Shown: positions 10,794 through 59,518, counted from the first letter of the stretch. The stretch is 64,000 nucleotides of DNA from Ignavibacteria bacterium (GCA_026416955.1 JAOAEE010000023.1:21122-85121), one strand, 5' to 3'. Notes: generated from the letters alone by a model not told the origin. A program made the numbers and translations.

Positions 10794-10798
10794 CTTTA

Positions 10799-28553: not shown

Positions 28554-28716
28554 TAAAATAATTACTTTTTTTGTTTTTGCAATTAAAAACAATTCTTAAC
28601 AATAAAGATAAATTTTTAAAAGACTATTCTTTTAAATAATAGTTTATCGTATTTCCCCAAATATTGGAAATTAACCTTTTATTATTAATTTTGATTTGTT
28701 AACATTTAGAAACATT

Positions 28717-30542: not shown

Positions 30543-32639
30543 ATGGAAACCAAAATTACTCCATTTAGACTTTTGCTTATCCTTGTAATTGGAACTTTGA
30601 TATTTCTCCTTTCTATTGCAATATATGTTTACGATGTCGCCTCGTATAATTTACCTTCTTTGGAGCAATTGGAAAATCCACCTCAAAACTATGCAACGCA
30701 AATATTTAGTAGCGACGGGGTTTTAATCGACTATTTATTTGTTGAAAGGCGTGTACCTCTTCCGCTGGATAGTATCCCGAAAGATTTCATTAATGCTTTA
30801 ATTGCAACAGAAGATAGAAAATTTTTTGAACATTGGGGAATACACCTTGGAAGAATTTTCCGCGCTATGATAAAAAATCTAATTTCGTTGAAAGTCAAAG
30901 AAGGCGGTTCCACAATAACAATGCAATTAGCAAGAAATTTATATTTCAACCAAGACTTCTCGATTAAAAGAAAAATTCGCGAGGCATTGACTTCTATTCA
31001 AATCGAAAAACAATTTACAAAAGAAGAAATTCTTGAAATGTATATAAATACTGTACCTTTCGGACGCGGAGCCTATGGACTTTCTGTTGCTTCAAAAGTA
31101 TATTTCGACAAGAATCCAATAGAATTGACTACTTCTGAATGTGCCTTCCTTGTGGGTATACTCAAAGCACCAGAACATTACAACGCAATTGTAGATTACG
31201 ACAAAGGTATTGAAAGGCGGAACCTTGTCCTCCGACTTATGTACGAGCAAGGATATATTAACAGTGCCCAATATTTGAAAGCTTTGGACGAACCAATTCG
31301 GCTTGCAAAAGTCAAAGTAAAAGATAAGAACCAATACCTACTTGCTCCTCATTTCGTTGAATATGTGCGAAGAATTGTTACCTCCGACCCAAGATTTGCT
31401 GAATACGACCTTTACCGCGATGGTCTTACAATATATACTACACTTAACGCGAAAATTCAACAATATGCAAAGGAAGCTTTAGAAGAGCACTTACGAGAAT
31501 ATCAAAAAGTGTTCAATGAATCTTGGAATTGGAAATACAAACAACAATTGTTAAATAAACTTGTAGAAGAAGCAATCAAAAAGAACCAAGAGTATGTGAA
31601 CGCACCAGCAAATAAAAAAGAAGAAATAGCAAAGAAACTTCGACAAAATCCAAATTTCATCGACTCTATAAAAAACGCTGTTACAACAATACAGGCTGGT
31701 TTAGTTGTTATCGACATTCAAACAGGCGAAATTGTCGCAATGGTTGGTGCATCTCCTAAATTTATTAATGAAAATCCGTTCGCTAAGCATTCTCTAAACC
31801 ACGCAACACAAATAAAAAGACAACCGGGCTCTGCATTCAAACCTTTTGTTTATGCTGCCGTACTCGAAGACACTCTTACCCCATTTTCGCTTATTGAATG
31901 TGGTCCATTTTCATATAAACTTCCCGATGGTCAAGTTTGGACCCCGCAGGGGTTTGGAAATTGTGAACCTGGCGAAAAAGTAACATTATTCGAGGCATTG
32001 GCAAAATCTATAAACTCGGTAGCAGCTCGATTAATCACAATGTATACTACGCCATTAAAGGTGATTGAAATAGCCCACAAAATGGGAATTGAGTCTCCAC
32101 TTCAAAATGTGCCAGCTCTTTCGCTTGGTGCTGGGGGCGAAGTTACACCTTTAGAGATGACAGTTGCTTTCTCCACCTTCGCTCGCGAAGGTTTGCGATT
32201 GAAACCAAAAGCAATTAAATATGTCGAAGACAACAGAGGAAATTTAATTGCTGACTTTCAAAAAGTTCAAGACATTAGCGACGCAATTAACCCAAGAATT
32301 GCACAAACTATGGTGAAGATGATGACTGGGGTAATAAATTTTGGAACCGGCTACGAAATTCGCCGATATTTTACAAATTGCGAAGCTGCTGGAAAAACTG
32401 GAACGACCAACAATTTTGCCGATGCTTGGTTTGTTGGTTTCACTCCACAACTTTGTGCTGGTATTTGGGTTGGCTTCGACGACCAGCGAATTAGTTTTAC
32501 TGGTGGTTACGGATACGCTGCAAAAGCAGCAGCTCCAATTTGGGGAAAATTGATGGCAAAGATCTATAATGACCCAACTTTACCTTATAAGCAAAGAAAA
32601 TTTGGTTTTATCGACAGCACTTATATTGTCAAACAGTAA
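30543..32639 (+). CDS. mrcA: penicillin-binding protein 1A (bifunctional transglycosylase/transpeptidase)
   Basis: Has an N-terminal TM helix. GT51 motifs are ATEDRKFFEHWG and GGSTITMQLARN. The transpeptidase motifs are SAFKPF and KTGTT. Confidence 0.93.
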   Translation: METKITPFRLLLILVIGTLIFLLSIAIYVYDVASYNLPSLEQLENPPQNYATQIFSSDGVLIDYLFVERRVPLPLDSIPKDFINALIATEDRKFFEHWGIHLGRIFRAMIKNLISLKVKEGGSTITMQLARNLYFNQDFSIKRKIREALTSIQIEKQFTKEEILEMYINTVPFGRGAYGLSVASKVYFDKNPIELTTSECAFLVGILKAPEHYNAIVDYDKGIERRNLVLRLMYEQGYINSAQYLKALDEPIRLAKVKVKDKNQYLLAPHFVEYVRRIVTSDPRFAEYDLYRDGLTIYTTLNAKIQQYAKEALEEHLREYQKVFNESWNWKYKQQLLNKLVEEAIKKNQEYVNAPANKKEEIAKKLRQNPNFIDSIKNAVTTIQAGLVVIDIQTGEIVAMVGASPKFINENPFAKHSLNHATQIKRQPGSAFKPFVYAAVLEDTLTPFSLIECGPFSYKLPDGQVWTPQGFGNCEPGEKVTLFEALAKSINSVAARLITMYTTPLKVIEIAHKMGIESPLQNVPALSLGAGGEVTPLEMTVAFSTFAREGLRLKPKAIKYVEDNRGNLIADFQKVQDISDAINPRIAQTMVKMMTGVINFGTGYEIRRYFTNCEAAGKTGTTNNFADAWFVGFTPQLCAGIWVGFDDQRISFTGGYGYAAKAAAPIWGKLMAKIYNDPTLPYKQRKFGFIDSTYIVKQ

Positions 32640-33330: not shown

Positions 33331-34734
33331 ATGAAAAACTATCTATTATACTTTTTACTCATTGTGACTTTTGGCTCTTTTCTTGGTTGTGGTACTTTTC
33401 ATACACGAACCGAGACCGAGACATACACCATCGTTGTCCGCGACACGCTAAACCAAATCGAAGTCAAGAACCATCCCGGGCGACAAGATTATGGTGTTGT
33501 ATACCCCTCATCTAAAATTCTCCACTCCACTCGAGAAATAGTTACAAGAGATAGTATTGTAGAAAGATACTATCCAAATTTCATTCGACTTGGTGTATTC
33601 GAAAGTGTAGGTTTGATTGGAACAAGCAAAACCGACCAACTTGGTGCCGGTATTTTTGGAATTTTTCGCGAAATAGAGGATTACCCATCGACGGACAATG
33701 GGTACAAAAACAAATTGTTTTCTGGTGGATACTATCGCTTCGGAATTGGAGAATGGAGATTACGATGGTTTAGGGATGCAAAGAATTGGACAATAGGAAC
33801 TTGCCTTTTCGAATTTTTAGCATCGGACAATATTCGCAAAAACACTCTTGCTGGAGTTTTTCCACTGTACATTAAAAAAAGGTTTTTCGTTTCGGAAAAA
33901 ATCCCATATCTAGCAATTTCCCCTTCGTTTGGTTTTGGTCTTTACCCTTCACAATATGTTAATCTTAACGCAGCTGTTGAACTTGGCTCGCTTGGAGGCT
34001 TGAACTTACGATTATATGGGGGATTTGCGATTGGTCAAAATCCCAAAGGCTTTCCAATGAACGACCGAATTAATGCAGAAACCCAAACCATTTCTACACC
34101 ATACCTTGGTGTTGGTATTTCATTCCTCGATTTTGTCAATATTGTTCCAGAACTTTATACTGAATGGAAAGACCATCCTCATTCTTCTTGGAATATTGGA
34201 GTTCTTCAATTTAGTTTGCTTCACACCAACTCCGACACAAGTTTAGGGAAAAACACAAAATCGCTTGTAAAGGGGCTTTATTTTCGTCTACTACCAGCGT
34301 CAATCTCAATTCCAATACTTAATAATGGATTTTACTTTGGCACATCATTGCTCAATGCTTTCCTTTTTGGGTTAAAAGATATTGGAATTGGTGTTCTTCC
34401 ATTCCGACTTGGTTATTGGCACGTTATTCTTCCAGACGAACTTTCTATCGAACCATTTATAGAATACAATTATTATCCATCGACATTTATACACTTTGGG
34501 AATCGCTTCAATTTGAAAATAAGCGAAACATTCAATTTTTCTTTCATATTGGGCTATGTTAACGGCAATAACGATAGGTTTTTAAAGAAAATAAATCGGG
34601 ATATGAATGATTTATTTGATTTCACACCCTATGCAACTTTTTCACGGTATTATATTGGGATATCTATCGGAATTATCGATAGAATTTTCCAACCCGAAGA
34701 GTTGCGATACAACAAGGAGGAATGGAAAAAATGA
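33331..34734 (+). CDS. hypothetical lipoprotein, possibly an outer-membrane beta-barrel
   Basis: 467 aa. The signal LIVTFGSFLGCGT contains a lipobox. The sequence is rich in alternating aromatic/Gly strands. I recognise no family. Confidence 0.6.
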   Translation: MKNYLLYFLLIVTFGSFLGCGTFHTRTETETYTIVVRDTLNQIEVKNHPGRQDYGVVYPSSKILHSTREIVTRDSIVERYYPNFIRLGVFESVGLIGTSKTDQLGAGIFGIFREIEDYPSTDNGYKNKLFSGGYYRFGIGEWRLRWFRDAKNWTIGTCLFEFLASDNIRKNTLAGVFPLYIKKRFFVSEKIPYLAISPSFGFGLYPSQYVNLNAAVELGSLGGLNLRLYGGFAIGQNPKGFPMNDRINAETQTISTPYLGVGISFLDFVNIVPELYTEWKDHPHSSWNIGVLQFSLLHTNSDTSLGKNTKSLVKGLYFRLLPASISIPILNNGFYFGTSLLNAFLFGLKDIGIGVLPFRLGYWHVILPDELSIEPFIEYNYYPSTFIHFGNRFNLKISETFNFSFILGYVNGNNDRFLKKINRDMNDLFDFTPYATFSRYYIGISIGIIDRIFQPEELRYNKEEWKK

Positions 34735-35369
34735 AGAAGTACATATTTTTTGCATTCTTTGGAGTAATCTTATACTCTTGCTGCTCTCCAAGAAGTGGAG
34801 AAAGTATTCCTTTGTTGAGTTCCAACTTTCGGGGTTATATTGGTTCGGCTCCGGAATACTTCATTTTGAACTGTGGATACGAAAATAAAATTTTAGGAAC
34901 AAAATTTGGTAATCCAGACTCTGTGTATGTTATAAACGATAGATTAACTATTTCCCCGGGGAATATGGTCTCTCTCTATGTCGAAGGAATAAATACTATG
35001 GATGCTGACTTTTACTTACACGTTCCTTATGGCGACGGTGTGCGTTTTTATTTTCGTGCGCCCGGAAAAGATTTTGAAAAATTCCCGAAACTAATTTTTG
35101 AGTACACAGTCCGTGGCAGTAAGGTATTTGAAGATAAAAAACTTCTCGCAAATGTAGACTCGGTTAAGTTAGACAACAATAAACAAAGTAGAATTTTCAT
35201 TCAAAACGAAGGGGAAATAGTCCACGTAATTGTTGGAGTAGATACAGTTTTCCAAGGTCGAACTAAACTACCCTTGTCTGAATTCATCTACGTTGAACCT
35301 ATCAACTCTAAAGTGGTTATTGATGATGTATATTTTTATCAACTTGTAGAAAAATCTTACATTTACTAA
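34731..35369 (+). CDS. hypothetical lipoprotein
   Basis: MKKYIFFAFFGVILYSCCS is a lipobox signal. The ATG at 34731 forms an ATGA overlap with the upstream stop and lies 10 nt after AAGGAGG. The ORF-track ATG at 34722 is only 1 nt from that SD. Confidence 0.65.
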   Translation: MKKYIFFAFFGVILYSCCSPRSGESIPLLSSNFRGYIGSAPEYFILNCGYENKILGTKFGNPDSVYVINDRLTISPGNMVSLYVEGINTMDADFYLHVPYGDGVRFYFRAPGKDFEKFPKLIFEYTVRGSKVFEDKKLLANVDSVKLDNNKQSRIFIQNEGEIVHVIVGVDTVFQGRTKLPLSEFIYVEPINSKVVIDDVYFYQLVEKSYIY

Positions 35370-35781: not shown

Positions 35782-36669
35782 ATGAAAAAATTATTCTTTT
35801 TTTTCTTGTTAATTGGGTTATTTTATTCCTAAACCTATTCGCAATGGAAGCCAGCAAATAATGGACTAAGTAATCCAAAAGTTTCTTGCTTTGCTGTTAG
35901 CGGAAATTACATCTTAATAGGAACCGAAGGCAATGGAATCTACTTACCGACTAACAACAGTTATAGTTGGAGCGAGAAAAATAATGGATTAAAAAACAAG
36001 TATATTCGAACCTTCAAGTTCAAAGGAAACAATATTTTTGCTGGAACATACTACGATGGTGTTTTAATTTCGACCGATTATGGAGAAACTTGGGTCGAAA
36101 AGAATAACGGCTTAACTAACTTCGACGTTTGGGCTATCTTAGTTAAAGAAAATATTCTTTTTGCAGGAACTTATGGGGAAGGGCTGTTCGCTTCGACAGA
36201 TGAAAGCGAAAGCTGGGTGCCCAAAAATAATGGGCTGACTACTCCCGATATTTGGTGGCTTGCAACAAACTGCGATTATATATATGCTGGAACAGCTGGT
36301 GGTGTCTTCCGCGCAAAAATATCCGATTTTGGCTTTTCGAAATTTGATTATGAAAAAAATTATCCTTCGGTTACTATTTTTCCAAACCCTATCCAAAATA
36401 ACTTTTTCATAATTAAGAACAATTCCAACTCCGCTAACATAACTATCCTAAATCAAATTGGGGAAAATGTCTACTCAAGTTTAATGCGAACCGAAGTAAG
36501 TTATTTATTCGTCCAATTCGAGAATTTTTCTTCTGGAACATATTTTCTGTGTATTACTTATTCCAATGGAAAAATAGTAGTTGTTAAATTTTTCAAAGTT
36601 AAATTAACCACATATTATTTTAATTTCTTTGGAAAGAAGAAGTTTAAAACAAATATGTTCAAGTTGTAA
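35782..36669 (+). pseudogene. Asp-box (BNR-like) repeat protein with T9SS C-terminal sorting domain, interrupted by an in-frame TAA after the signal peptide
   Basis: GGAGG-taaa-ATG, then MKKLFFFFLLIGLFYS, then TAA at 35830-35832. The same frame then stays open to 36669. It encodes four repeats of about 41 aa, each beginning NNGL and containing STDYGETW-type Asp-boxes. The C-terminal domain has FPNPIQNNFFII...GTYFLCITYSNGK. No ATG, GTG or TTG occurs in frame between 35833 and 36216. Confidence 0.75.
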
Positions 36670-44427: not shown

Positions 44428-47307
44428 TTATTTGATTATCAAAAAAGGAAAAACAAACGCTTGTCCGTCAATTTCTAATTTCAAGAAATACGTGCCATTT
44501 GTGAAAGAAGATGTTAGAAACCAAATTGGGATTACCTTTGTCTCCGAATTAAAAATTAATGAACTTTCATATAATTTGTTCCCCAAGAGGTTATAAATAA
44601 ATAATTTACAATTAATACTTTGCATAGAATTAATTAATATCACTTCGGTCTCATTTCCAGTAACAATCGAAGGCACTTGAATAGAAATTCCACATTTGTT
44701 CTGGACAGAAGTGGTAGATGTATCGACCTCTCCGACAAAAATATTATCGAACCAAACGGTTCCAGTATGACCTCGGAATAAACAATAAACATTTCCTTTA
44801 TAAATCGGGAAAGGAGGTACGTAAATGACGCCTGAATATTCCCAATCGTGGGTTCCAGTAGAAAATTTTGCAATCCGACCATACCAAGGCTTGTTTTCCT
44901 TAGAATAAAAATCGCAATAAATTGCGTAGTTGTAGCCAGGTTGTCCCGAAACTCCTTCTGCTTTCGACCAACCAGCAACCAAAATCGGCTTCGCTTCGGT
45001 TTGGTTTAAGTAAATAACAGTATAAACACCACCAGTATCGCTCGAAGAAGTGTTGGTTACTTTTACGGAACGCTTAAAGTGTTGGGCATTTAAACCAGTT
45101 GTGTCATACTCAAAACGACCATAGTAAGGGTACCAATTATCGGGAATTCCATTCATATCGACATCATATTCAAAACTGAAATTCGGAACAAAATTGCTTG
45201 TATCGATATTTCCAAGTTTAGGATTTACATAATTAATTGTCATTAGCCCAGTCGAAGACATCGCAACAATTGGAAATACTAAATCTCTCAATTTCGCACC
45301 AACTGGAATTTTTATTTCACCAGAGTATTCAGAAAAAACTTCATTTGCCGGTGAACCGTCGTTTTTCAGAACTAAATCCTCCAATATCCCAATTGTTGTA
45401 AGGTCTACATAAACATATAAAGGCAAATTAGGTCTGCTTTTAAACTCATTAGAAGATGAATCGGCACATTCAACACGTGCGCGAATTGCAATCTCATTTT
45501 TACCCGCACTTTCAATAATAATACTTGGATTTTTTATCATCGGAGAGGTTAATTTACTGGACTTACCTTTCAAAATTATTTTGGCACTTTTAGGAAATAG
45601 AATAGAATCGGCAGTTTTAGTAAAAAGTCTTCCCCCTTCAATAGAAAGCAAAGTATCGACAGTAATTTCGGGCATACCTTGGATAGTAGGAATAACAACG
45701 GTATCCTTTGCATTCGAGTTAACATAAACAACACAGTTATCGAATTCTCTTTTAAAATACTTCTTTCCTTTCTTGTCCAACTGTTGCAATTGCTGTATAG
45801 AATCTGTTGCATTTTCCAAAGCATTTCCGACAGGGATATCGAATTCTGGAAAATGTGCAAAAACTTGATAATTAACTGAATTGCCAAAAGCCGAATTTTT
45901 CCCTCCAGTGAGCAAAAAAGACGATACGCAGTAAATCCGAGATTGTGGTAATTTATCCAAAATTCCACTCAAAGGTAGCCACATTTTTTTGTACTGGTTC
46001 TCGCACTTAATACCTCGATTACAAGCATTTAACCAATTAGTTTCGGTAACATAACCCGACCAATGATTATGAGCAAAACCTTCGTCCATCCCTCCGTCAC
46101 TAACTTCAAGAAACCTCAACCCTCTGCTTTCATAAAGCCCATTGAAAATTAAAGGTTTACTTCCCAATGCTTTTTTTACTTCGTAAAGGAAATTGTAAAC
46201 ACCATCATACCATATGCTATCTGAATAATTCAAAGGTGGATAACAATCGACACCCCAATTGGAAATTCTATTCCAAGCATCGTCGGCAAAAACTCCGTTG
46301 TATCCTCTTGCAAATGCTTTTTGAACTTGCTCAATGTAATTTCTTCTCCATTTTTCGTTAGTTACATCCATAACAAAGAAATTATAATAATCATTTTTAA
46401 CCCTATTGTTTGCATTATTCGTCCAAAATCCAACTTTTGGGTATCGATATTGCTTACCTTTCTTGAAACAAACGATATAACACTCAATCCCAGCATTTAC
46501 GACATAATTTAGCAATTCACTATAAACAAAATTATCAGCACTAAAAGGTATAATGATTATCTCATTTTGGTCGAATTTGTTGTTTTTATTCAAATCTGCG
46601 TAAAAATACATTGAATCGGGATATGTCTTGGACACAAATTTAATAACCACATCAAATTGAGTTGAATTATTGGTTTTTTTTGTTTGAATGGTTTCGGGAA
46701 GACAAATTGGTATTCCTTCCTCGTATCTCAATTCAATTGGAAAGCTGTAAGGAATTTCGAGAGTATCGTTGACGATAGTATTTAACTTAACCCAACGTGC
46801 AGATTTAGGCAAAGAAATTGCTAATTCATTTGTCTTAACAATAGTATCCGTACTTAAATAATTGTCGATTGAATCTTTACTCCAATATAACTTATAAGAA
46901 ATTTTTACATTTGTATCCAACTCGAATCTTCTATCTGGCATCCAATAAAACTTCCAGCTTTTATCGAAAGTAACGGTCAAACAAGAAGGTTCAGAAATAT
47001 GAAGGAAAGCATCCTCTTCGAGGTTAATTTTTGGATATTCTTCAAGATAATAATTCAAAGCAACGACATCTTTGTAGAAAAGTATTATATAGTCCTTATC
47101 GAAACTTCTAATTAATTTTAATTCGGCCTTACTTGCTTCGTCCAAAAATGCAAATCGCTTGTATGCAAGCTTTGTTAAAAAAACATCACCTTTGATTGCC
47201 CAATAATTGACTAAATAACTTTTGTAGCCACGCGGTAAATACTCTTTAGGTTGGGAAAAAGAACTTACAGAAGAAATAAGAAAAAGTAATAAAACCAAAC
47301 AAATCAT
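44428..47307 (-). CDS. secreted glycoside-hydrolase-like protein (GHL15/GH114-like TIM-barrel region) with T9SS C-terminal sorting domain
   Basis: 959 aa. Signal peptide: LLLFLISSVSSFSQ. The central segment ARGYNGVFADDAWNR...GGMDEGFAHNHW resembles GFDGVFLD-type GH114/GHL families (from memory, weak). The C-terminus LFIYNLLGNKLYES...GTYFLKLEIDGQAFVFPFLIIK resembles a T9SS CTD. Confidence 0.55.
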   Translation of the reverse strand: MICLVLLLFLISSVSSFSQPKEYLPRGYKSYLVNYWAIKGDVFLTKLAYKRFAFLDEASKAELKLIRSFDKDYIILFYKDVVALNYYLEEYPKINLEEDAFLHISEPSCLTVTFDKSWKFYWMPDRRFELDTNVKISYKLYWSKDSIDNYLSTDTIVKTNELAISLPKSARWVKLNTIVNDTLEIPYSFPIELRYEEGIPICLPETIQTKKTNNSTQFDVVIKFVSKTYPDSMYFYADLNKNNKFDQNEIIIIPFSADNFVYSELLNYVVNAGIECYIVCFKKGKQYRYPKVGFWTNNANNRVKNDYYNFFVMDVTNEKWRRNYIEQVQKAFARGYNGVFADDAWNRISNWGVDCYPPLNYSDSIWYDGVYNFLYEVKKALGSKPLIFNGLYESRGLRFLEVSDGGMDEGFAHNHWSGYVTETNWLNACNRGIKCENQYKKMWLPLSGILDKLPQSRIYCVSSFLLTGGKNSAFGNSVNYQVFAHFPEFDIPVGNALENATDSIQQLQQLDKKGKKYFKREFDNCVVYVNSNAKDTVVIPTIQGMPEITVDTLLSIEGGRLFTKTADSILFPKSAKIILKGKSSKLTSPMIKNPSIIIESAGKNEIAIRARVECADSSSNEFKSRPNLPLYVYVDLTTIGILEDLVLKNDGSPANEVFSEYSGEIKIPVGAKLRDLVFPIVAMSSTGLMTINYVNPKLGNIDTSNFVPNFSFEYDVDMNGIPDNWYPYYGRFEYDTTGLNAQHFKRSVKVTNTSSSDTGGVYTVIYLNQTEAKPILVAGWSKAEGVSGQPGYNYAIYCDFYSKENKPWYGRIAKFSTGTHDWEYSGVIYVPPFPIYKGNVYCLFRGHTGTVWFDNIFVGEVDTSTTSVQNKCGISIQVPSIVTGNETEVILINSMQSINCKLFIYNLLGNKLYESSLIFNSETKVIPIWFLTSSFTNGTYFLKLEIDGQAFVFPFLIIK

Positions 47308-50104: not shown

Positions 50105-51208
50105 TTGGAAACAAATGTTATTAAAATACTAGTATCTGCTGGTGGAACAGGTGGACATCTTTTTCCAGCAATTGCAGTAATCGAAGAGATAGAAAATATT
50201 TTAAAAAATAAATATCAACTGGAAATATTTGCTATTGGAAAACAGAACAAAATCGAAGCAAAAAAAAGTTACGAAAAAGGTTGGCACTTCATTCCAATTC
50301 CAATGGAAGGTTTTTCTGGTTTTGGATTGAAATTTTTTGATTTTTTTGTCAAGACTATTAAGTCTGTAAATATTGTGCGCAATTTGATTCGCAAAGAAAA
50401 TATCGATTTTGGAATAGGAACAGGTGCCTACATTACCTATCCAGCTGGTATTGCTCTTTATTCAGAAAAAAAACCATTTTTTCTACTTGAAAGCAATTTG
50501 GTGCCGGGACGCGCAAATCGTTTGCTTGCAAGAAAATCATCTATTTTTTTTGCAACTTTCGAAAATACAATAAAGTACCTACCTCCAAACATTGAAACTA
50601 AATTCAAAGTATACGGGACACCAATTAGGAAAGATTTGCTTTCACAAATTCCAAAGGAGCAAGCAAGAAAGAAACTAGGCCTTGACCCCGAAAAAAACAC
50701 TATTCTGATTTTTGGTGGTAGCCTTGGTGCTAAGTCCATTAACGATGTTGTTTTTTCAAACTACAAGAAACTTCTCGCTTCTGGCTTCCAAATTATTTGG
50801 CAAGTTGGAAAAAACTTTGATGTTGACATTGTCAATCAAAAAGGGCTAATAATTTTCGAGTTCATTGATGATATGGCAACTGCTTATGCAGCAGCGGATT
50901 TGGTAGTTTCTCGCTCTGGTGCTTCCACAATTGCAGAAATTTCTGCTCTTGGTAAACCAGCAATTCTTATCCCTTATCCTTTTGCTACTGGAAAACACCA
51001 AGAACTAAACGCAATGGAATTGCACACTAACGAAGCAGCAATTTTAGTTCACGACAACGAAGCAAAGGAAAAGTTAATACCAAAAATCTTTGAACTTTTC
51101 GAAAATCAAGAAATGTTAACTAAATTAGCAATGAACATAAAAAAATTCTATAAACCAAATTCTTGCGAAAGAATTGCAAAAGAAATTTTGAAATTTTTAA
51201 ATATTTAA
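50105..51208 (+). CDS. murG: undecaprenyldiphospho-muramoylpentapeptide beta-N-acetylglucosaminyltransferase
   Basis: ILVSAGGTGGHLFPAIAV...LIFGGSLGA...SRSGASTIAEISALGKPAILIPYP...HQ..NA. The start is TTG and its position is uncertain. Confidence 0.9.
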   Translation: METNVIKILVSAGGTGGHLFPAIAVIEEIENILKNKYQLEIFAIGKQNKIEAKKSYEKGWHFIPIPMEGFSGFGLKFFDFFVKTIKSVNIVRNLIRKENIDFGIGTGAYITYPAGIALYSEKKPFFLLESNLVPGRANRLLARKSSIFFATFENTIKYLPPNIETKFKVYGTPIRKDLLSQIPKEQARKKLGLDPEKNTILIFGGSLGAKSINDVVFSNYKKLLASGFQIIWQVGKNFDVDIVNQKGLIIFEFIDDMATAYAAADLVVSRSGASTIAEISALGKPAILIPYPFATGKHQELNAMELHTNEAAILVHDNEAKEKLIPKIFELFENQEMLTKLAMNIKKFYKPNSCERIAKEILKFLNI

Positions 51209-51248
51209 CTTAATTTTGATTTTTAACAGATTTTATTAGTAATTTTTT

Positions 51249-51716
51249 ATGGGGAAACAATTTCCTTTAATTTTCGAGAAAAGATTTGATTTTTACTGGA
51301 AATCTATTGCAATTTATTGTATTGTTTTGATTTTGTATTCGCTACTTCGTGGTACTTTAGAAGAAGGCACTCTAACCCTACGAGTTTCGGACCCCCTAGT
51401 TATTTTGCTTACTCTAATTATACTTTTTTCTATTGTTGGGTATCTTTTTAGCATTTGGAAATCTCCAAAAGTAATTGTAGGTAAAGACTATATAACACTA
51501 AAAACAAGGTTCAAAGAAATCAATCTACCCGCAAATCAAATCTCAAAAATCGTAATTGGTAAAGAAATTGTTTCGAACCTTAAAAGGCCTATGAGGATAA
51601 TTAAAATTTTCGTTACGTTCCGAAAGGCACCTTTTCGTATTCGCCCAAGTTTGTTTTGGAACCACAAAGAATTAATCGAAGCGCTAATTCAATTTAAGAA
51701 AAGTAACAACAAATGA
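51249..51716 (+). CDS. hypothetical membrane protein (2 TM helices plus a possible bacterial PH-like domain)
   Basis: 155 aa with two hydrophobic helices followed by a basic soluble domain. I recognise no family. Confidence 0.55.
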   Translation: MGKQFPLIFEKRFDFYWKSIAIYCIVLILYSLLRGTLEEGTLTLRVSDPLVILLTLIILFSIVGYLFSIWKSPKVIVGKDYITLKTRFKEINLPANQISKIVIGKEIVSNLKRPMRIIKIFVTFRKAPFRIRPSLFWNHKELIEALIQFKKSNNK

Positions 51717-52318
51717 AAATTAAACCTATTTCCATTCTCTTTCTTTCTTTCTTTCTTTGTATCCCATCGCTAACAACCCAAGAAGAAGTAATTTCTTCGA
51801 ATAAACAAATAGTCCTTGGTTTCATCAAAGAACTTGCCGATAGTCTATCTATTTATCCAACGAATCGGTATTTGCACCTAAAAATCTCCACTCATTCTCT
51901 TTCAGAATTCGTTGAAAGCATTATTATCGAAAGACTTTCGGCAAAGGAATTCAAGTTCTTTACTTTTCAGTGCGATTCTTGTACTAATATTCAATTAACA
52001 ATTAGAAAGTTCGATATTAACTATAAACGAATTATCAAAGAAAAACCAACAAATTTTATCATTAGAAAAGTTGAACTTGAAGTAGTTTCACTGATTAAAG
52101 AACCAAACTCAGATATCAAACCTTTATTATTTGTCGAGACATACAATGATACGATTAATTTTGAAAATTTCGACATAGTGGAAAAAGATGGTATTCCTTT
52201 CACGGGGAAAAAACCAAAAGAACCAGAGAATTTCCTTAAAAAATATATTGAACCAATAGTTATTATTGGTTCAACAGCACTTGGTGTGCTATTATTCTTT
52301 ACAATTCGCTCGAAGTAA
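51713..52318 (+). CDS. hypothetical protein with a signal peptide and a C-terminal TM anchor
   Basis: The start forms an ATGA overlap with the upstream gene. N-terminal signal: ILFLSFFLCIPSL. C-terminal helix: IVIIGSTALGVLLFFTI. Confidence 0.55.
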   Translation: MKIKPISILFLSFFLCIPSLTTQEEVISSNKQIVLGFIKELADSLSIYPTNRYLHLKISTHSLSEFVESIIIERLSAKEFKFFTFQCDSCTNIQLTIRKFDINYKRIIKEKPTNFIIRKVELEVVSLIKEPNSDIKPLLFVETYNDTINFENFDIVEKDGIPFTGKKPKEPENFLKKYIEPIVIIGSTALGVLLFFTIRSK

Positions 52319-53641
52319 TTATTTCGAAACTATTATTATTTCTGTTCTACGATTTAGTTTTCTTCCAAATTCAGTATCGTTTGGTGCAATTGGCTTTCTC
52401 TTGCCAAAGCCAACTGTTTTAATTCTATCGGGTGAAATGCCACGGTTGACAAGGTAGTTTTTGACTGCGTCTGCACGCAAAATCGAAAGTCTATCGTTAT
52501 AAGGATGTGAGCCACGGTCGTCGGTATGCCCTTCGACCAATATTGTAACATTGGGCTTGTTCTTCATAAATTGGTATAGTACTTCCAGTTCTTTAACAGT
52601 ATCGGGTAAACTTGCGCTATTTGTTTCGAAAAGTAAATTTTCAATTATTAATTTTCTTCCCAGTTCAACTATTGGTATTGTTTTACGCACAATTTCTTTT
52701 CTTTCGGGACTAAAGATTGCTATGTTAATAGAATCGGGAATTGCAGGTAGATCTGTTCTATATTTTATCGAGTACAAATTAGTAAGTTGGCTCGAAAAAT
52801 TATTCAAAATGGTCGAGAAAGGATACTCAATATCGAATTGATTTCCGCGTGTTTTAGAAGCAATAGTCTTATAATCCTTCAATTTTGGGGGTGTTATTGT
52901 AAAGCAACGAATATCATTTTTATTCAAATACTCAATAATTGAGTTGGTGGTTTCAAAAGTAGTCCCATCCCCTTTCTCGCCTAGCTGATGATAGGGAGCA
53001 TCAGTTATCAACACTATCACACGATTTGCCGAGGGTCTAAATGCTATCTGGCTGGTTGATTTGATGGCTTCGAGAGCGTTTTCCTTTTCGTCGCCACCAC
53101 CATACGCACGTACAGTTGAAAGCCACGCAAGAAAGTTGTTTACATTATCCGATGGTTGATAAACTTTTTCAACAATATCGGAAAAAAGAATTAAGCCAAT
53201 ACGATAATCAATTCCTCGACTTAGCAAAGTAGAAAGAAACCTCGATATGTTACTCTTTATGTCATCAATATGCTTTTGCATCGAGCCAGTTACATCGACA
53301 ATAAAAACGAAATCAACTGGAATTCTTTCCTTTACGGAAATCTTTGAAACAGAAATTACTTGTTTTTCTATGCCATTTTCTGTTACAATTACATCACTTG
53401 TTGTTAAAGTATCCAAAGGAAATCCGCTTGTATTGAAGGCTTCTACTATAATATTAATCTCTGGGAACTTGGCAATATCAACATTTCGAATAGTAAGCAA
53501 AACAGGCTTCTTTTCGGTTTTAACCTCAGCAGATTTCAAAACCTCTTGAATTTTTTTCATTGAATCTGGGGTTGGAATTTGCCCATAAACAAGGAATGTA
53601 ATGAAAAATAATACTACAAGCAAACGCAAAATCATCTTCAT
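52319..53641 (-). CDS. vWA-domain protein with a C-terminal OmpA-like peptidoglycan-binding domain
   Basis: The signal peptide is LLVVLFFITFLVYGQ. The MIDAS motif is VFIVDVTGSM...GGGDEKE...LITDA. The OmpA_C segment is ILVEGHTDDRGSHPYNDRLSILRADAVKNYL...NRRTEI. Confidence 0.85.
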   Translation of the reverse strand: MKMILRLLVVLFFITFLVYGQIPTPDSMKKIQEVLKSAEVKTEKKPVLLTIRNVDIAKFPEINIIVEAFNTSGFPLDTLTTSDVIVTENGIEKQVISVSKISVKERIPVDFVFIVDVTGSMQKHIDDIKSNISRFLSTLLSRGIDYRIGLILFSDIVEKVYQPSDNVNNFLAWLSTVRAYGGGDEKENALEAIKSTSQIAFRPSANRVIVLITDAPYHQLGEKGDGTTFETTNSIIEYLNKNDIRCFTITPPKLKDYKTIASKTRGNQFDIEYPFSTILNNFSSQLTNLYSIKYRTDLPAIPDSINIAIFSPERKEIVRKTIPIVELGRKLIIENLLFETNSASLPDTVKELEVLYQFMKNKPNVTILVEGHTDDRGSHPYNDRLSILRADAVKNYLVNRGISPDRIKTVGFGKRKPIAPNDTEFGRKLNRRTEIIIVSK

Positions 53642-53680
53642 AAAGAAAGACTAATTATTCATACATAATAATTAATTTAC

Positions 53681-53712
53681 AAAAAAACCCTCTAACTAAA
53701 AAAGTCAGAGGG
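53681..53712 (-). terminator. rho-independent terminator candidate between the 473-aa gene and the vWA-OmpA gene
   Basis: CCCTCT..AGAGGG forms a 6-bp stem, plus 2 further pairs across a bulge. On the minus strand the hairpin is followed by a 7-T run (A-run at 53681-53687 on the plus strand). Confidence 0.5.
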
Positions 53713-53735
53713 TAACAAAAACTAAATAAATCATA

Positions 53736-55157
53736 TTACAAAGTTAACCGTAAAACGGGAGAAATCAGAAAGAAAGTTTTGTTTTCGAAAGGTTGAGCAG
53801 TTCTCATAATCCGAGCAACTCTACCTTCGATATACAACCAGTTGAACAAAGGCAAATAAACACGCCCTAAAAGTATTTGATTGGAATACTGCACACTTGC
53901 CCCAAATGGCCAAACAGACTGATTTCTATATTCAAACTTAACAAACAACCAATCTGCGAACTCATTAGGTTTATGAGTATTTAAAACAATGCTTTCATCT
54001 TCGGGCGTAGGAACAAGATAGTAATGTTGAAATTGTGAAGGTTTGAAAAATACTTCCCTAACTTCGAAATAATTAATCCCTAAATCGAAACGAAAATAAT
54101 TTTCAGGATTTGCTTCGGTTAACCATAAATTATAGAAAACAGTAAACTGACCTGAGGAACGAAGTAAAGGAGCAACTTTGTAATTTTCAAGTGTTAACTC
54201 GTTCACTTTATTGTAAGCAAAGTATTTTGTTGGGTCAACTGCTTCCTCTTTTAATTCGGACAACGGTAGTTGCATATTAAGGTGCAAACCCAATTTGGGA
54301 TGGAAAGGCAAATGGAAATCCAACCCTGCAATTAACATTCCGCCGGGACCTTGATTTAACTTCTGACTTGGAACCCAACTAAAAACCGTACCTTTGTTGT
54401 TAATCCCACCAGATATTCTATATGAACCGCCAAGATAAGCATTTATCAAATAAGGAATTCTATCGCTTGTTCTGGAATCTCGATTAACATAGAGTGGCCT
54501 TTTCAGCAAGATTTTCGATGAACCAGATGTCCAAAATGTATATCCAATTTCATCAGTACCAATAGCATTTTTCAACCAGAATCCCGATTCACCAAACTTC
54601 AGTGTTTGCTCGAAAAATGATAAAGTAAAGGAATGGGTAACATTGGTTGGTTCAAGATAATTTATAATGGCTTGTGCTTGCGAGGCAGTAACGGGAACTT
54701 CGGGAGGAATATCGACATAACAATAGTCTCTTTTCCCTTCGACCCAAGTGAAAGGATTCGAAAAAGCATCAGCACCAGACAAAATATTGACAAGTCGTTC
54801 ACCAAGGTTTACTTGAATTTGGGATGCACTAAGACTAACTTCCCCACAAGTTAACAACAGCATATCAAATGGTTCGTATTCGCTTTTCCTTGGTGCTGCA
54901 AGTATTTCAATTCTGGTCTTACTAAGTTTGGATTCATCGTAGCCCAAAATTCTAAATGCTTGAAATACTTGTATTTGCAAGTCTGTTTCACAAACTTTCC
55001 ACCGAGGGAAATACTTTCTAATTTCTGGGTCAATAGTTGTCATTGAATCAATCAACTCGCGAGGGTTAACATTTAGATGTTGCGATTTTAATTCAAAAAA
55101 TGAAACTAAAACAAGCAACCCAACAAAAACAAATAACTTTCTCATATCACTTATCAT
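53736..55157 (-). CDS. hypothetical secreted protein, predicted outer-membrane beta-barrel; paralog of the upstream 582-aa gene
   Basis: Signal peptide: MRKLFVFVGLLVLVSFFELKSQ. The alternative ATG at 55145 is equally possible. The C-terminal 130 aa aligns with the neighbouring gene: FRFDLG..YFEV vs FRFGLG..FYQV, and WPFGASVQY vs TPFGANLQY. Confidence 0.6.
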   Translation of the reverse strand: MISDMRKLFVFVGLLVLVSFFELKSQHLNVNPRELIDSMTTIDPEIRKYFPRWKVCETDLQIQVFQAFRILGYDESKLSKTRIEILAAPRKSEYEPFDMLLLTCGEVSLSASQIQVNLGERLVNILSGADAFSNPFTWVEGKRDYCYVDIPPEVPVTASQAQAIINYLEPTNVTHSFTLSFFEQTLKFGESGFWLKNAIGTDEIGYTFWTSGSSKILLKRPLYVNRDSRTSDRIPYLINAYLGGSYRISGGINNKGTVFSWVPSQKLNQGPGGMLIAGLDFHLPFHPKLGLHLNMQLPLSELKEEAVDPTKYFAYNKVNELTLENYKVAPLLRSSGQFTVFYNLWLTEANPENYFRFDLGINYFEVREVFFKPSQFQHYYLVPTPEDESIVLNTHKPNEFADWLFVKFEYRNQSVWPFGASVQYSNQILLGRVYLPLFNWLYIEGRVARIMRTAQPFENKTFFLISPVLRLTL

Positions 55158-55169
55158 AATTGTTTACAA

Positions 55170-56888
55170 TTAAAAATTAACAATAAAACGAACCATTGGA
55201 ACGAAATACCCTTTGTTTTCCCATTCCTCTGGTTTATCCTTGAATGGGACAAAATACCCGCGCCCATCTATTCGCAAAGCCAGAGTTTGACGAATTATAG
55301 GAACTTGCAACCACAAACCACCGCCGATACCACCATTAATGTATTGAAGATTGGCACCAAATGGAGTGGCAATATTTGTTGCCATAAAATCAATTCGGAT
55401 GGAAACATCTCCAACTGAAACTTCATCGTACTTACGGAAAACAAGTTTACGGCGCAAATCGGCAGTGTCTAAATCGTAAAACCATTTTTCAACTTGATAG
55501 AAGGTTGCACCTAAGCCAAATCTAAACAAATAATCATTATCAATTTGTACACCAAAAGTATAATAGGCTTGGGCATTTCCTCTAATAAGGTAATCAAAAT
55601 CCGAACGGGCTATTGCATCATTTGGGTTGTAAGTCATAGAATCCAAATTTCTCGATTTATATTTACTTTCTTTAGCATCGCCAACAACATAACCGAAATC
55701 GAAATGAAATACTCCACTCTTTGGTATTACCTTAATAGGAAAATCGAAAGAACCAGCAAGACCAAAACTTGCAAAAGTAAGTTTCCGATTAATATCAAAA
55801 AGATTTTTACCCATCGAAGCCCAACCATCGGTAGGAAGAATTAATCCAAGTTTAACATTTTGCCAAAGAGCACTTAAAGTTAATCTTTCACTGAAAAATG
55901 AAAGATAGTTGATACAATCTATCCCATATTTTAACTCTAATCCAAAGTTTGGCAAATCGGAGTTAGAATGCAAAGCACTGTCAATCACAAATTTTCCTGC
56001 ATCGTCGTAGTATCCTGGAGGTGGGAACCTACGCCACAAAATCCAATCGGGGCTTAAAATGAGTTCATTTTGCTTGAGTCCGAAATCGAAAGGTTCACCT
56101 TCGGAAACGCGAAGAATTTTTTGAACATCAAAGGAAGTTAAATCAGACTCATTAATAAATGGACTTCCAGTATTCCCAAAAACCTTACGAGCAAACCACT
56201 GAGGGTTACCAATCCCTTGTGCTTGTATTGTAACATTTTCGACATTTCTTTGAACCAAAGTAGTAACCATTAAGTCGTACATATTATCGGCAGAGAAAGT
56301 GGTATCAAGTTTAAAATTTCTCATTTCATCATAAGTGTAAATATCCCCAGGCCCAATGCTTCTTAAACTTTTCTCCAGATCCTGAGTTTGTGAATAACTA
56401 ATTAACAGGGCGATAATTACTTTTGGCAGTTCCCCGGGTTTAGTCCTTGTAGTAATCAAGTATGCGTTTTCTGGTCTTTGTTCTGCAGCACCTTGATATT
56501 TAACACGGTAAAATTGGTAGACCTGTTCAAGAATTGCTGGTTCTGGTGGAGTTAAACCCCGGTTCTCTATAGCATTAGTAATTTCCCTAAGGCTTTCATC
56601 TGCACGCACACCATCTTCGATAATCGAAAGAATATCTTGTGAAACAGCCTTCAAAATTTCCTCATTAATTTGAACGCCTGCAACTCTTTGTTGCTTCAAC
56701 TGAATAGCTCTACGAATATCGCCGATATTTTTTAATCGGTAAATAGAAATATTACCAAAACGATAATTTGAAAATCTACTTAGAATTTGTTCCATCTCAG
56801 TCCTTGAAGCTTCGTCTTGGGAAAATACTGGACTCGACAAAAAAACACAAAGTAATATCGCCAGTATTCTTAAATTGTTTTTTTTCAT
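55170..56888 (-). CDS. hypothetical secreted protein, predicted outer-membrane beta-barrel
   Basis: The ATG at 56888 has GGTGA 8 nt upstream. Signal peptide: MKKNNLRILAILLCVFLSSPVFSQ. The C-terminal half has alternating strand patterns and ends ...MVRFIVNF, an OMP-style terminal Phe. Confidence 0.6.
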   Translation of the reverse strand: MKKNNLRILAILLCVFLSSPVFSQDEASRTEMEQILSRFSNYRFGNISIYRLKNIGDIRRAIQLKQQRVAGVQINEEILKAVSQDILSIIEDGVRADESLREITNAIENRGLTPPEPAILEQVYQFYRVKYQGAAEQRPENAYLITTRTKPGELPKVIIALLISYSQTQDLEKSLRSIGPGDIYTYDEMRNFKLDTTFSADNMYDLMVTTLVQRNVENVTIQAQGIGNPQWFARKVFGNTGSPFINESDLTSFDVQKILRVSEGEPFDFGLKQNELILSPDWILWRRFPPPGYYDDAGKFVIDSALHSNSDLPNFGLELKYGIDCINYLSFFSERLTLSALWQNVKLGLILPTDGWASMGKNLFDINRKLTFASFGLAGSFDFPIKVIPKSGVFHFDFGYVVGDAKESKYKSRNLDSMTYNPNDAIARSDFDYLIRGNAQAYYTFGVQIDNDYLFRFGLGATFYQVEKWFYDLDTADLRRKLVFRKYDEVSVGDVSIRIDFMATNIATPFGANLQYINGGIGGGLWLQVPIIRQTLALRIDGRGYFVPFKDKPEEWENKGYFVPMVRFIVNF

Positions 56889-56942
56889 AATTTTTTCACC
56901 TATTATCAAACAAATCAATTTTCTCCAATTAAGAGTAAAATA

Positions 56943-59267
56943 TCACCTTCTCTTTTGTGGACCACTTGGAGTGGTGCGTCGTGTACCTTTTTCTCTTTCA
57001 TAAAGGAACGAAACGCTTAAGGTAGCATTCCTTTGTGAAACTTTTCCATTGCATTGATTCCTTGCAGTTGCTGTAATTGGAAATCTTGCTATTCCGGTTA
57101 ACTCATCTTGACCACGAGGAATTAAACCAGTATTGACAGTAAAATCGAAAGTTATAGAATAACCATTTTCCTCTTTTTCAATTATTGGGTCTGAAGCTAA
57201 ATCAACAATTCCTTCAATACCTTCGAATTTTGGTTTACCAATACTAAGTGAAACTTCTGCCTTAGTCTTCCCACCAGAGCCATCATCTGGTTCTATCACA
57301 GTAACATTCAAAACTTGTATTCGAACTTTGTTTCCAGTTTGACTTCGCTTCTCACTCTTTGAAGCAAGATTAACCTTGGGTTCATCTTGTTTTATTTCAT
57401 TCTCTGTCAAAGGTAATAATTCCACCTCTTTACCAGTTATAGGTTGTATCCACCATATTTTTGCAAAAAGTTTGTTCGCCTTGCAATCTAAGAAAACTTT
57501 TTGTTCAGGCGGTATGGACAAACCAACATATGGTGGTTTTTGCTGTTCTAAATCTGTTGCCAAATAAATTCTAAATTGGTCGGATTTAATTTTAGCACCA
57601 GAATTCGGAATAACGCTAAAGTAAATGTTATATCCATAATATGCACTTGCCAATTTGGACTTAATTAATTGGGCACTTTCATCGGTCAATCCAGTCTTAA
57701 ATATTTCAAGTTCTGCTGTCTCGGTTTTTGCTCGGCCAGCAAGTCTATGGGTAATCTCGATTTTATATTTTCCAGGGGATAGTTGCCGTTCAACTATTCC
57801 ACGATAATAGCGATTTCCCCCAACCACGGGTTTAGGAACAATAGAACCAGCAAATTCATCTTCACCCCGGCAAATAATCCGGGCTACGGGATTTCCGCTT
57901 TCATCAAGAACTCTACCCGATACATCGTTTGCAGCAGTTCCTTGATATGGACTTATTGTGAAGCCAAATACTGGTTCGACTGCATCAAATTGGGCAAAGT
58001 ATGGCTCTATTGTAACAGTAGGTTCGCTAACAGCAGGTTTCGGGGTAATTACACGTACATCGAAAGATATGCTGTTTGCATTTTGGGGAAACATTACAGA
58101 AAGGCCGGGTGTGAGTAATTTGGCAATGTATCCATAAAGTTTTATCTTGCTTATAGTTTCAACAGCATTTTCCTCCCCTGCAGCCATTTTGATAGAATTT
58201 TCAAGCATTTGGTCGAACTTTTCAATATCATCAACAGATTGAGCGTTTTGTAGCAATTCAGAAGGAGGTAAGTTGTACTTTATTAATCTTGTTTCAAGTT
58301 CTTTCTTAACTTTGTTCAAATCCTTAACAGTTAAAGTAACAGTACCAATATTAATTCGAGTTTCTTCGGGAACTTCTGGCCCAGCGGTTTCTTTCACAAC
58401 ACCAAGTATCCTATTAGTTCGGGAATATATGCGAAGTTTATACCAACCAGGTTTATTTGGGGGTTGAAAATTAACAATGAAAATCCTTTTCTTTAAGTCG
58501 GACAAAAGGCTGGCACCTTTTTGCGAAGAAATTTCAGGAGAGTAAAAGAAAACACTGTCTTCGTTGTTGTTCGGGGAATACGGGGGACCAACTGCAAATC
58601 TCAGGTTTTTGGGATAAAATGGCTCAAGATGTTCTAGGGTTAAATGTTGCAGATTATCAATAATGACTTTCTCGATTTGTTGATAGTCTAGTGTAAGTTT
58701 GCGTAAAGAAAGGAACTCCCAAGTTGTTCCGTCGGAAGCAGTAATAGTCTGTCCCGGTTGCATTTTGGTGAAATCTAACCCTTTTTTGCGAATTTCTTCC
58801 TCAGTTAAAAATGGTGGAGCATTTATCGGGTCTTGGCTAGAATTAAAGAAAATTTGATATTCAATTTCTTGGACATTTGCAAGTTTTGCTGCAACTCTCA
58901 TTCTTTCAAGATATTCTTTTTCGCTCTCGCCTTCTTTCCTTTTTAGTTCTGCCGAAACATCGGTAACACCAACCTCAACAATGTATTTTCGGGAAGACTT
59001 AATATCGGCTCCCATAATCTGCTTCATATTAATTCCCGGAGGGGGTATTGTAATTTCGTCTTGTGGTCGAGTATTAATACCTTCTGTACCGGAACCAGAT
59101 TGAAGCTGGGAAAGTATGCTCTCTACAATACGCATCGTTTCTCTTTGTTTCTTAAGAAGGCTTTCTTCTGCTTCGTCCCTTTCGACAATGATAATAAGTA
59201 ACTCCAAGATAACGGCAAGATATAAAATGAAATAAACCTTCCCGGCACCACCACCCTTTGCAGACAT
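56943..59267 (-). CDS. hypothetical bitopic membrane protein with a long periplasmic region (beta-sandwich-like segments)
   Basis: A strong SD (AAAGGAG) precedes the ATG. MSAKGGGAGK is followed by a single TM helix VYFILYLAVILELLIIIV and a charged helical linker. About 700 aa follow, containing PGWYKLRIYSR and PGKYKIEITHR motifs. The C-terminal tail is basic. Confidence 0.6.
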   Translation of the reverse strand: MSAKGGGAGKVYFILYLAVILELLIIIVERDEAEESLLKKQRETMRIVESILSQLQSGSGTEGINTRPQDEITIPPPGINMKQIMGADIKSSRKYIVEVGVTDVSAELKRKEGESEKEYLERMRVAAKLANVQEIEYQIFFNSSQDPINAPPFLTEEEIRKKGLDFTKMQPGQTITASDGTTWEFLSLRKLTLDYQQIEKVIIDNLQHLTLEHLEPFYPKNLRFAVGPPYSPNNNEDSVFFYSPEISSQKGASLLSDLKKRIFIVNFQPPNKPGWYKLRIYSRTNRILGVVKETAGPEVPEETRINIGTVTLTVKDLNKVKKELETRLIKYNLPPSELLQNAQSVDDIEKFDQMLENSIKMAAGEENAVETISKIKLYGYIAKLLTPGLSVMFPQNANSISFDVRVITPKPAVSEPTVTIEPYFAQFDAVEPVFGFTISPYQGTAANDVSGRVLDESGNPVARIICRGEDEFAGSIVPKPVVGGNRYYRGIVERQLSPGKYKIEITHRLAGRAKTETAELEIFKTGLTDESAQLIKSKLASAYYGYNIYFSVIPNSGAKIKSDQFRIYLATDLEQQKPPYVGLSIPPEQKVFLDCKANKLFAKIWWIQPITGKEVELLPLTENEIKQDEPKVNLASKSEKRSQTGNKVRIQVLNVTVIEPDDGSGGKTKAEVSLSIGKPKFEGIEGIVDLASDPIIEKEENGYSITFDFTVNTGLIPRGQDELTGIARFPITATARNQCNGKVSQRNATLSVSFLYEREKGTRRTTPSGPQKRR

Positions 59268-59518
59268 TTCAACTCCTTTCTATTTTATTTAAATACATAA
59301 AACTTTTGCAAAATTATACAACAAAAAAATAAAAACAAAACTGTAATAAATTTCAATTTAAATAGTTTGTAAAACTTGCAAAATAATAAATAAAATGATT
59401 TTTTTGTAGAATTATAAAAAGAAACAATGTAGTAGAAAAAACGACAATCTTTAAGTTATTCAATTTACAATTTTGCTTATTATTTTATTTTATTTTTGCT
59501 TTTATTCGTTTCGAAAAA

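Follow-up and report, generated by a model that had tools for sequence, protein, structure and literature searches.

Tol-Pal, TonB, Lpt, the type IX secretion system (T9SS) and Glt are central to the way in which diderm bacteria build, hold and use their outer membranes, and these systems were found in cultured model organisms. One of them, the Agl-Glt gliding complex of Myxococcus, has bitopic inner-membrane proteins, the paralogous outer-membrane barrels GltA/B/H and a von Willebrand factor A (vWA) adhesin, CglB, whose metal ion-dependent adhesion site (MIDAS) is important. Considered here is a 64,000-nt stretch of DNA from an Ignavibacteria bacterium (GCA_026416955.1, JAOAEE010000023.1:21122-85121; hereafter the window, with coordinates counted from its first letter), and within it a cluster of four minus-strand genes, termed a to d, whose products A to D have a logic like that of Tol-Pal, TonB or PorLM-PorE, though by sequence and gene context it belongs to none of them.

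A, B and C define three new protein families, which together with D stand in a strictly conserved 3+1-gene arrangement, and the module seems to belong to the core of an entire class-level lineage that is uncultured. What is new are the three orphan families and the arrangement; the component folds and the overall logic of envelope-spanning complexes are known. Tentatively, and at a little less than even chances, the abc operon and the adjacent d are read below as a lineage-restricted module bridging inner membrane, peptidoglycan and outer membrane. If it is a true bridge, it would couple outer membrane, wall and inner membrane by barrel anchors and a soluble vWA-OmpA clamp, and not by a lipoprotein. 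Irrespective of its role, the signature segment at the N-terminus of A (Table 1) is a sharp diagnostic motif for annotating hundreds of metagenome-assembled genomes (MAGs).

A conserved gene order in one uncultured lineage

Four co-directional open reading frames (ORFs) are found on the minus strand where the initial annotation had placed them (Table 1), and the details of sequence which it had picked out, such as the 12 nt from the B stop to the C start, are all present. For B an alternative TTG start at 56918 would give 582 residues, the NCBI record taking the ATG, and for C the NCBI annotation begins 4 codons later to give 469 residues; throughout (locus tags N2560_03840-03850) that annotation reads 'hypothetical protein'. 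The closest relatives of the source genome are 'Candidatus Kapaibacterium' MAGs.

Table 1. Genes of the module and features within and between them
Feature	Position	Strand	Description
Gene a	56943-59267	minus	ORF, 774 residues; predicted bitopic inner-membrane protein
Gene b	55170-56888	minus	ORF, 572 residues from ATG; predicted secreted protein with barrel-like C-terminal domain
Gene c	53736-55157	minus	ORF, 473 residues; predicted secreted paralogue of B
Gene d	52319-53641	minus	ORF, 440 residues; predicted secreted vWA + OmpA_C protein
Signature segment of A, residues ~10-36	59160-59240	minus	K-VYFxLYLAV-LELLIIIVERDEAEE; predicted transmembrane helix, then invariant Arg30 and Asp31
vWA domain of D, residues 110-265	52847-53314	minus	Pfam VWA 46, VWA_2 47.7 and VWA_4 50.7 bits, all above cut-off
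OmpA_C domain of D, residues 337-431	52349-52633	minus	Pfam PF00691, 84.2 bits vs gathering cut-off 27.2
Intrinsic-terminator-like hairpin	53677-53713	minus	Between c and d; stem 53713-53687, 11-bp, GC-rich, 5-nt loop, T-run

A scan of 185,579 species-representative genomes (GTDB species) found relatives of A in ~290 of them, with one module locus per contig examined, as is expected for a core envelope function. Of the 80 best loci, all have A, 71 have B, 67 have C and 63 have D, the lower counts being due to contigs that end, and in all 63 genomes with a long enough contig the order and strand of A-B-C-D are identical, down to 40% identity in A. The initial annotation had asked for a test of gene order across genomes of the FCB (Fibrobacteres-Chlorobi-Bacteroidetes) group and Ignavibacteria; the order holds fully among these related genomes, which belong to one lineage only. 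Unbiased clustering of all flanking ORFs at 84 loci yielded no other neighbour family in more than 20 of the 80 loci, and no motor, ATPase, T9SS, regulator, cargo or adhesin gene as a conserved neighbour; genes for an HD-domain protein, TrkA/TrkH, a peptidase M28, a phosphoribosyltransferase and a response regulator recur, but the flanks are housekeeping genes unrelated to the module.

Divergent relatives show what can vary. The divergent loci L086 and L089 have A'-B'-C' without D, and L090 has A'-B'-C'-D with only 6 nt from C to D. At L088 (12024-18678) the order is A'-B'-B''-C'-D: A and D enclose three barrel paralogues, of which two are B-type and one is C-type, so the module does not always have two barrels. 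Because divergent lineages keep the A-B-C triad, some of them without D, the core of the module is A, B and C, with D as a near-constant fourth member.

The named members are all MAGs with the label Kapabacteria, Kapaibacterium, Ignavibacteria, Chlorobiota or Bacteroidota, and their entries without exception read 'hypothetical protein'. When 1.84 billion cluster representatives were searched exhaustively with HMMER, 212 clusters matched, which mostly appear to be of the same family, many of them partial, while a few share single domains of A (three that were scanned carry a T9SS C-terminal sorting domain, CTD). The module is confined to one uncultured class-level lineage, of the Kapabacteria type, and literature searches on this gene cluster found nothing. 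Among the 'binchicken' MAGs with the module many (L007, L012, L013, L015, L020, L021 and others) bear the title 'uncultured Hyphomicrobiales bacterium' and one, L055, bears 'Desulfobulbaceae'; such organism names are clearly mistaken and of no use for taxonomic distribution.

Next to d, at 50105-52318 on the plus strand, are MurG and then two small predicted membrane proteins, of 155 and 201 residues, that have no Pfam or NCBIfam match. This trio was seen in the window and at L005-L012, L001, L003, L029 and L031; it is convergent to d in the closest relatives, and in some genomes further removed it is again near the module, sometimes in the other orientation or several kb off. The two small ORFs look like a conserved murG-linked gene pair. 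As partners of the module the three were rejected, since apart from the closest relatives few genomes have them adjacent to it, and they are regarded as neighbours and not as parts.

Transcription units

The hairpin between c and d, given as 53681-53712 in the initial annotation, is real (11 pairs and a T-run). With the criterion of a free energy of -12 kcal/mol or lower in 40 nt, then a T-run, no further than 100 nt after the gene, such a structure follows C in 52 of the 63 genomes, compared with A in 3, B in none and D in 17, and gene-interior controls gave 0/63. Stem sequences vary between lineages, so the structure is what is conserved. Because a terminator-like hairpin follows C with this regularity, the comparison points to abc as one conserved transcription unit, with d transcribed alone or, in attenuated fashion, via read-through. 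The question whether the hairpin separates d from abc is in this comparative sense answered in part, with a yes, but d is still found directly downstream of c in 63/63 sufficiently long loci; that it stays strictly adjacent amid changing neighbours is an argument for its being linked to abc in function.

At the other end of the operon a strong Shine-Dalgarno-like AGGAG is located 8 nt 5' of the ATG of a (59268-59290, minus strand), and an element, TAATTTTG (TAnnTTTG, Bacteroidota -7-like), lies further upstream at 59309-59316; these two readings come from the sequence alone. A scan of the region with the sigma-70 consensus found 27 matches versus 24 expected in shuffled sequence and was not used. 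A plausible small ORF upstream of a was looked for and not found.

Protein A

AlphaFold2 modelling of A (mean pLDDT 83, from an alignment of 74 sequences) agrees with the initial outline of a short tail, one transmembrane helix, a helical linker and a long periplasmic part. A short cytoplasmic tail is followed by a single continuous helix, modelled at residues 9-56, that comprises the transmembrane segment (11-28) and a stalk, and ~720 extracytoplasmic residues are predicted to follow as serial domains: a mixed alpha/beta region (61-313), a helical bundle (314-392) and three immunoglobulin (Ig)-like beta-sandwiches (397-523, 565-658 and 671-757). PGWYK and PGKYK are the forms in which its PGxYK motif occurs.

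That A, B and C have no recognisable family has stood up to searching. A has zero matches in Pfam and NCBIfam even at E<=1, and its profile gave chance matches alone against PDB sequences (E>0.1); NADH peroxidase and FliS are the ones named among such matches for the A, B and C profiles. Whole-chain Foldseek against the PDB gave generic tandem Ig/FnIII proteins only, and nothing specific. There are more than 645 homologues, every one of them annotated 'hypothetical'.

The distribution of conservation along A is very uneven. Expressed as the fraction of 54 sequences (mean identity 28%) with the commonest residue, it is 96% for the transmembrane helix and 93% for residues 29-36 (the ERDEAEE stretch), and just 28-34% for the C-terminal Ig-like domains. 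Glu22, inside the helix and 6 residues from its periplasmic end, is invariant, as are Arg30 and Asp31, and every helix face is conserved. Because all the faces, Glu22 included, are near-invariant, we infer that the transmembrane helix is buried in a protein assembly and is not lipid-exposed. Residues 38, 41, 45, 48, 52 and 55 can be read from the sequence as a heptad pattern, which suggests an oligomeric stalk, and residues 37-56 probably do oligomerise. What A has in common with its short divergent relatives (540-640 residues) is mainly its first ~75 residues and a portion of the central beta-sandwich.

Residues ~245-381 in the middle of A (the beta-sandwich with PGWYK and the helices after it) recur in P0473, P0479 and P0501, which are otherwise unrelated proteins of 600-800 residues bearing a T9SS CTD. 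Their recurrence there suggests a mobile extracytoplasmic module that is not private to A. Could the N-terminus of A be that of a prepilin? LELLIII is not unlike the pilin xIELLIV; the candidate was rejected, there being no Gly at -6 from the Glu and no TIGR02532 match.

Proteins B and C

B and C have hydrophobic, signal-peptide-like N-termini. In the AlphaFold2 model of B (pLDDT 82) a signal-peptide helix is followed by an alpha/beta domain (~29-265) and a beta-strand domain (~274-571), the latter with at least 12 long antiparallel strands, most of them with dyad amphipathicity or alternating hydrophobicity. Almost all of the 50 listed Foldseek matches of B in the PDB are membrane beta-barrels, the exceptions being two of very low probability, and they include porins, OmpG, AlgE, PgaA, FadL, OmpT and Tom40. 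The scores are weak, with E from 4e-5 to 4e-3, target TM-score 0.24-0.39 and query TM-score 0.14-0.23. B ends in RFIVNF, and 71 of 74 members have Phe as their C-terminal residue. The resemblance of the modelled C-terminal half of B to an outer-membrane beta-barrel is well supported, and is not proof.

C was initially described as paralogous to B, and its sequence bears this out: BLASTP of C against B gives E=3e-5 and hhalign a probability of 92% (E=6e-7) over the last ~200 residues, and the B and C genes of divergent loci each match both profiles. By these comparisons C is a paralogue of B; its N-terminal domain contains Cys and is highly conserved, and its C-terminal beta domain is like that of B. 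Its last residue is Ile or Leu in the main clade and Phe in the divergent L086/L087, L089 and L090, in which the B and C proteins both end in Phe. Of the earlier description of both proteins as like outer-membrane barrels, the part on B thus has a model with barrel fold matches of low TM-score behind it, and for C it is homology to B that suggests a barrel-like nature. Neither protein has a Pfam or NCBIfam match at E<=1, when the members of the B and C alignments were scanned one by one the matches were scattered and due to chance, and against PDB sequences the B and C profiles had chance matches only (E>0.1).

Protein D

D alone among the four was initially given domain assignments, a vWA domain with a MIDAS and an OmpA_C domain, and both hold, with Pfam scores above cut-off (Table 1), many OmpA_C matches in the PDB for the latter, and conserved motifs. 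It has in addition an N-terminal beta domain and a signal peptide of cleavable type. In the MIDAS motif, DVTGSM, and beyond it, D116, T118 and D213 are invariant in 65 orthologues and D184 is present in at least 90%, the metal site being a variant, DxTxS...D...D, of the canonical criterion DxSxS...T...D. The peptidoglycan-binding motif GHTD...N..LS..RA is conserved in the same orthologues. Judged by sequence, the vWA and OmpA_C domains are ordinary members of their families. The signal-peptide region has no lipobox Cys in this genome and, because of this and of its OmpA_C domain, the prediction for D is a soluble protein of the periplasm that is bound to the wall.

Comparison with described systems

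PorM/GldM, like A, is bitopic, with an N-terminal transmembrane helix and C-terminal Ig-like periplasmic domains reaching the outer membrane. However, residues 61-313 of A are modelled as mixed alpha/beta, unlike the all-helical D1 domain of GldM, and that A is a relative of GldM/PorM was rejected: hhalign with residues 1-364 of Flavobacterium johnsoniae GldM (its sequence verified against PDB 6ys8) gave a probability of 0.3%, and there is no GldM_N or GldM_C match. No PorM or GldM chain is among the top 50 Foldseek matches of A, and no gldL/porL or gldKLMN-type cluster lies beside A in the 80 loci. PorE has in common with D an OmpA_C peptidoglycan anchor, and the host lineage uses T9SS. Identity of D with PorE was rejected as well, since D scores 77 bits against the NF052230 cut-off of 600, its OmpA_C part alone matching, and lacks TPR, beta-propeller and CRD; nor, in contrast to T9SS clusters, are porL, porK or porN nearby.

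In logic Tol-Pal is also close, with a bitopic periplasm-spanning protein (TolA, and here presumably A), an OmpA_C wall partner (Pal, and here D) and a connection to the outer membrane, and both look like core, single-locus envelope functions. There is nevertheless no sequence relationship: A lacks the SHLS-type transmembrane motif of TolA/TonB and TolA domain III, and it has no match to the GldM, ExbD, TolR, MotB, TolA or TonB models of Pfam and NCBIfam. D as Pal was rejected on 78.9 bits against the TIGR02802 cut-off of 125.35, the absence of a lipobox Cys and the extra vWA domain, and tolQ, tolR, tolA and tolB are not among the conserved neighbours. Further, the module's attachment to the outer membrane would use two barrel paralogues, not a lipid anchor.

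With MotB, ExbD and TolR A shares a single N-terminal transmembrane helix, an invariant acidic residue and high conservation on every face. The acidic residue of A, though, is a Glu nearer the periplasmic end, while theirs is towards the cytoplasmic end, and its periplasmic part is five times longer. MotB joins the transmembrane helix to OmpA_C function, whereas in the module OmpA_C is on a separate protein, D. The MotB, ExbD and TolR profile models do not match A, and no MotA/ExbB/TolQ-type gene is nearby.

In its paralogous barrels and its vWA protein the module may also resemble Glt and CglB, though A, B and C have no homologue in Pfam or NCBIfam. Unlike CglB, a surface lipoprotein, D is predicted to be periplasmic and peptidoglycan-bound, and unlike Glt the module has no TolQR-like motor genes or TPR partners nearby and is found in the FCB group, not in Myxococcota. 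Finally, D as a Bat (Bacteroides aerotolerance) vWA protein was rejected, since it has a cleavable-type signal peptide and OmpA_C and is without transmembrane anchors and TPR/Bat-type neighbours; among the best 25 of the 46 NCBIfam families that match D there is no Bat-specific one.

What might the module do?

A, B and C fall in no unrelated family, their order is conserved and B in its model resembles a membrane barrel; none of the three outcomes by which the initial annotation would have been refuted was seen, and its trans-envelope parts-list reading is plausible, if unproven. In the bridging model which we favour, A would be held in the inner membrane within an assembly, either a homo-oligomer or one with an unlinked inner-membrane partner, and its stalk and variable Ig-like domains would reach across the periplasm. 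B and C would be the outer-membrane anchor, with their N-terminal domains facing the periplasm, and D would pin the assembly to peptidoglycan, its MIDAS clamping an acidic residue of A, B or C. The role might then be envelope tethering or force transmission as with Tol-Pal/TonB, perhaps energised by an unlinked inner-membrane partner. Such a tethering or force-transmitting link is judged the most likely role, and a dedicated secretion or motility machine less likely, because the module looks like a single-locus core feature with no cargo, ATPase or adhesin genes and with a Pal-like wall anchor. Several observations count against a bridge: the TM-scores of B to outer-membrane barrels are low; conservation in A is lowest in the distal Ig-like domains, which would be expected to contact B, C or D; D is not beside A-B-C in two divergent lineages; no motor, ATPase or inner-membrane partner is encoded near the module, so that the partner of the transmembrane helix is hypothetical; and among the matches there was no cultured organism with the module.

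The near-invariance of the transmembrane helix of A on all faces, with an intramembrane Glu22 and then ERDEAEE, is also what a new energised trans-envelope machine for secretion, adhesion or gliding would lead one to expect, since an enclosed helix with such conservation is the pattern expected in 5:2 motors (MotAB, ExbBD, GldLM). A would be the shaft, its Glu-bearing helix sitting in an unlinked MotA/ExbB/TolQ/GldL-like proton-conducting ring, B and C would be outer-membrane conduits or tracks, and D a peptidoglycan-anchored stator or adhesin-holding element. The bitopic multi-Ig architecture of A fits, as do the T9SS-type cargo in the genome and the recurrence of A's residues ~245-381 in CTD-bearing proteins. 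Against it, A has no homology to the GldM, ExbD, TolR and MotB models, its Glu22 is, as read from the sequence, towards the periplasmic end, unlike in MotB/ExbD/TolR, the conserved neighbours include no gene for a motor, ATPase, cargo or adhesin, and literature searches gave nothing on motility in the lineage. We regard such a machine as rather unlikely, and the secretion, adhesion or motility role put forward in the initial annotation is for secretion and motility speculation, nothing having been found to link the module to any of the three. The more specific proposal of a truly new energised machine private to Kapabacteria, in which A would be rotor or plunger in an ion ring, with an Ig shaft driving, for example, secretion, outer-membrane remodelling or the movement of surface adhesins at the outer-membrane barrels and D a MIDAS-clamp stator, is improbable. 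The same conservation of the helix would be left unexplained by a passive scaffold, which is one difficulty for the view that the four genes are linked in function without forming a bridge, B and C being outer-membrane channels or biogenesis factors for a lineage-specific polysaccharide or lipid, A a membrane-anchored scaffold for binding or processing, and D a general anchor to the wall that happens to be adjacent. Exporters and importers of polysaccharides and hydrophobic substrates (AlgE, PgaA, FadL) are among the fold matches of B, the conserved terminator splits D from A-B-C, D is absent from beside A-B-C in the two lineages already mentioned, and the distal domains of A are poorly conserved, all of which would suit it. 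Yet D is adjacent in 63/63 typical loci despite changing surroundings and is nearly fused to C in L090, and glycosyltransferase, ABC-transporter or polymerase neighbours are lacking; this possibility too seems on balance rather doubtful.

Might B and C instead be soluble or peripheral beta-rich periplasmic proteins, and the module a peptidoglycan-associated scaffold? The low query TM-scores (0.14-0.23) and the Ile or Leu at the end of C in the main clade would be in keeping with this. However, the 50 listed fold matches of B are almost all membrane beta-barrels, its strands are long, antiparallel, at least 12 in number and mostly alternating, the terminal Phe is present in 71/74, and at the divergent loci L086/L087, L089 and L090 Phe is the last residue of C too, so soluble B and C are very unlikely. 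The T9SS connection made in the initial annotation fares no better. An accessory T9SS module, for example an alternative PorLMNK/PorE-like sub-complex, could draw on the partial match of D's OmpA domain to the PorE model and on the facts that the genome encodes one T9SS CTD protein or more and that a PD40+CRD+OmpA gene is present elsewhere in the window. The match is however of 77 bits against a cut-off of 600, hhalign of A with GldM gives 0.3%, so that A is no GldM/PorM homologue, its top 50 fold matches are free of PorM/GldM, no T9SS core gene is a conserved neighbour, and T9SS is spread throughout Bacteroidota whereas the module is in one class-level lineage. Such an accessory module is highly improbable, and the bridging model, with the tentativeness given to it above, is the one that we retain.

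Other features of the window

Two CTD cargo genes and a PorE-like gene had been noted in the window, and this description holds in part. One cargo gene is clear (36217-36669, 39.5 bits) and the other is sub-threshold (44428-47307). The clear one, on the plus strand, is a 150-residue ORF with a GTG start that is essentially all Por_Secre_tail domain, and it may be the tail of a longer frameshifted or mis-started gene; the ORFs upstream of it, 33331-34734 and 34722-35369, have no family match. The 'PorE-like' gene (28696-30537, plus strand) has the PD40, CarboxypepD_reg and OmpA domains, but scores 132 bits against the PorE cut-off of 600, and its score against the CHU_0125 'OM integrity' model is near-equal. 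A class A penicillin-binding protein gene (30543-32639) is immediately 3' of it.

The rest of the window is ordinary core chromosome, with rpoBC, EF-G, EF-Tu, NusG, PBP1a, CTP synthase, MurG and mraZ/rsmH. Within 5785-12886, on the minus strand, are two full-length EF-G paralogues (5785-7842 and 10799-12886), and between them a DNA methylase (9858-10748) and a 335-residue ORF without assignment (8851-9858), which may together be a restriction-modification insertion in the translation-factor region.

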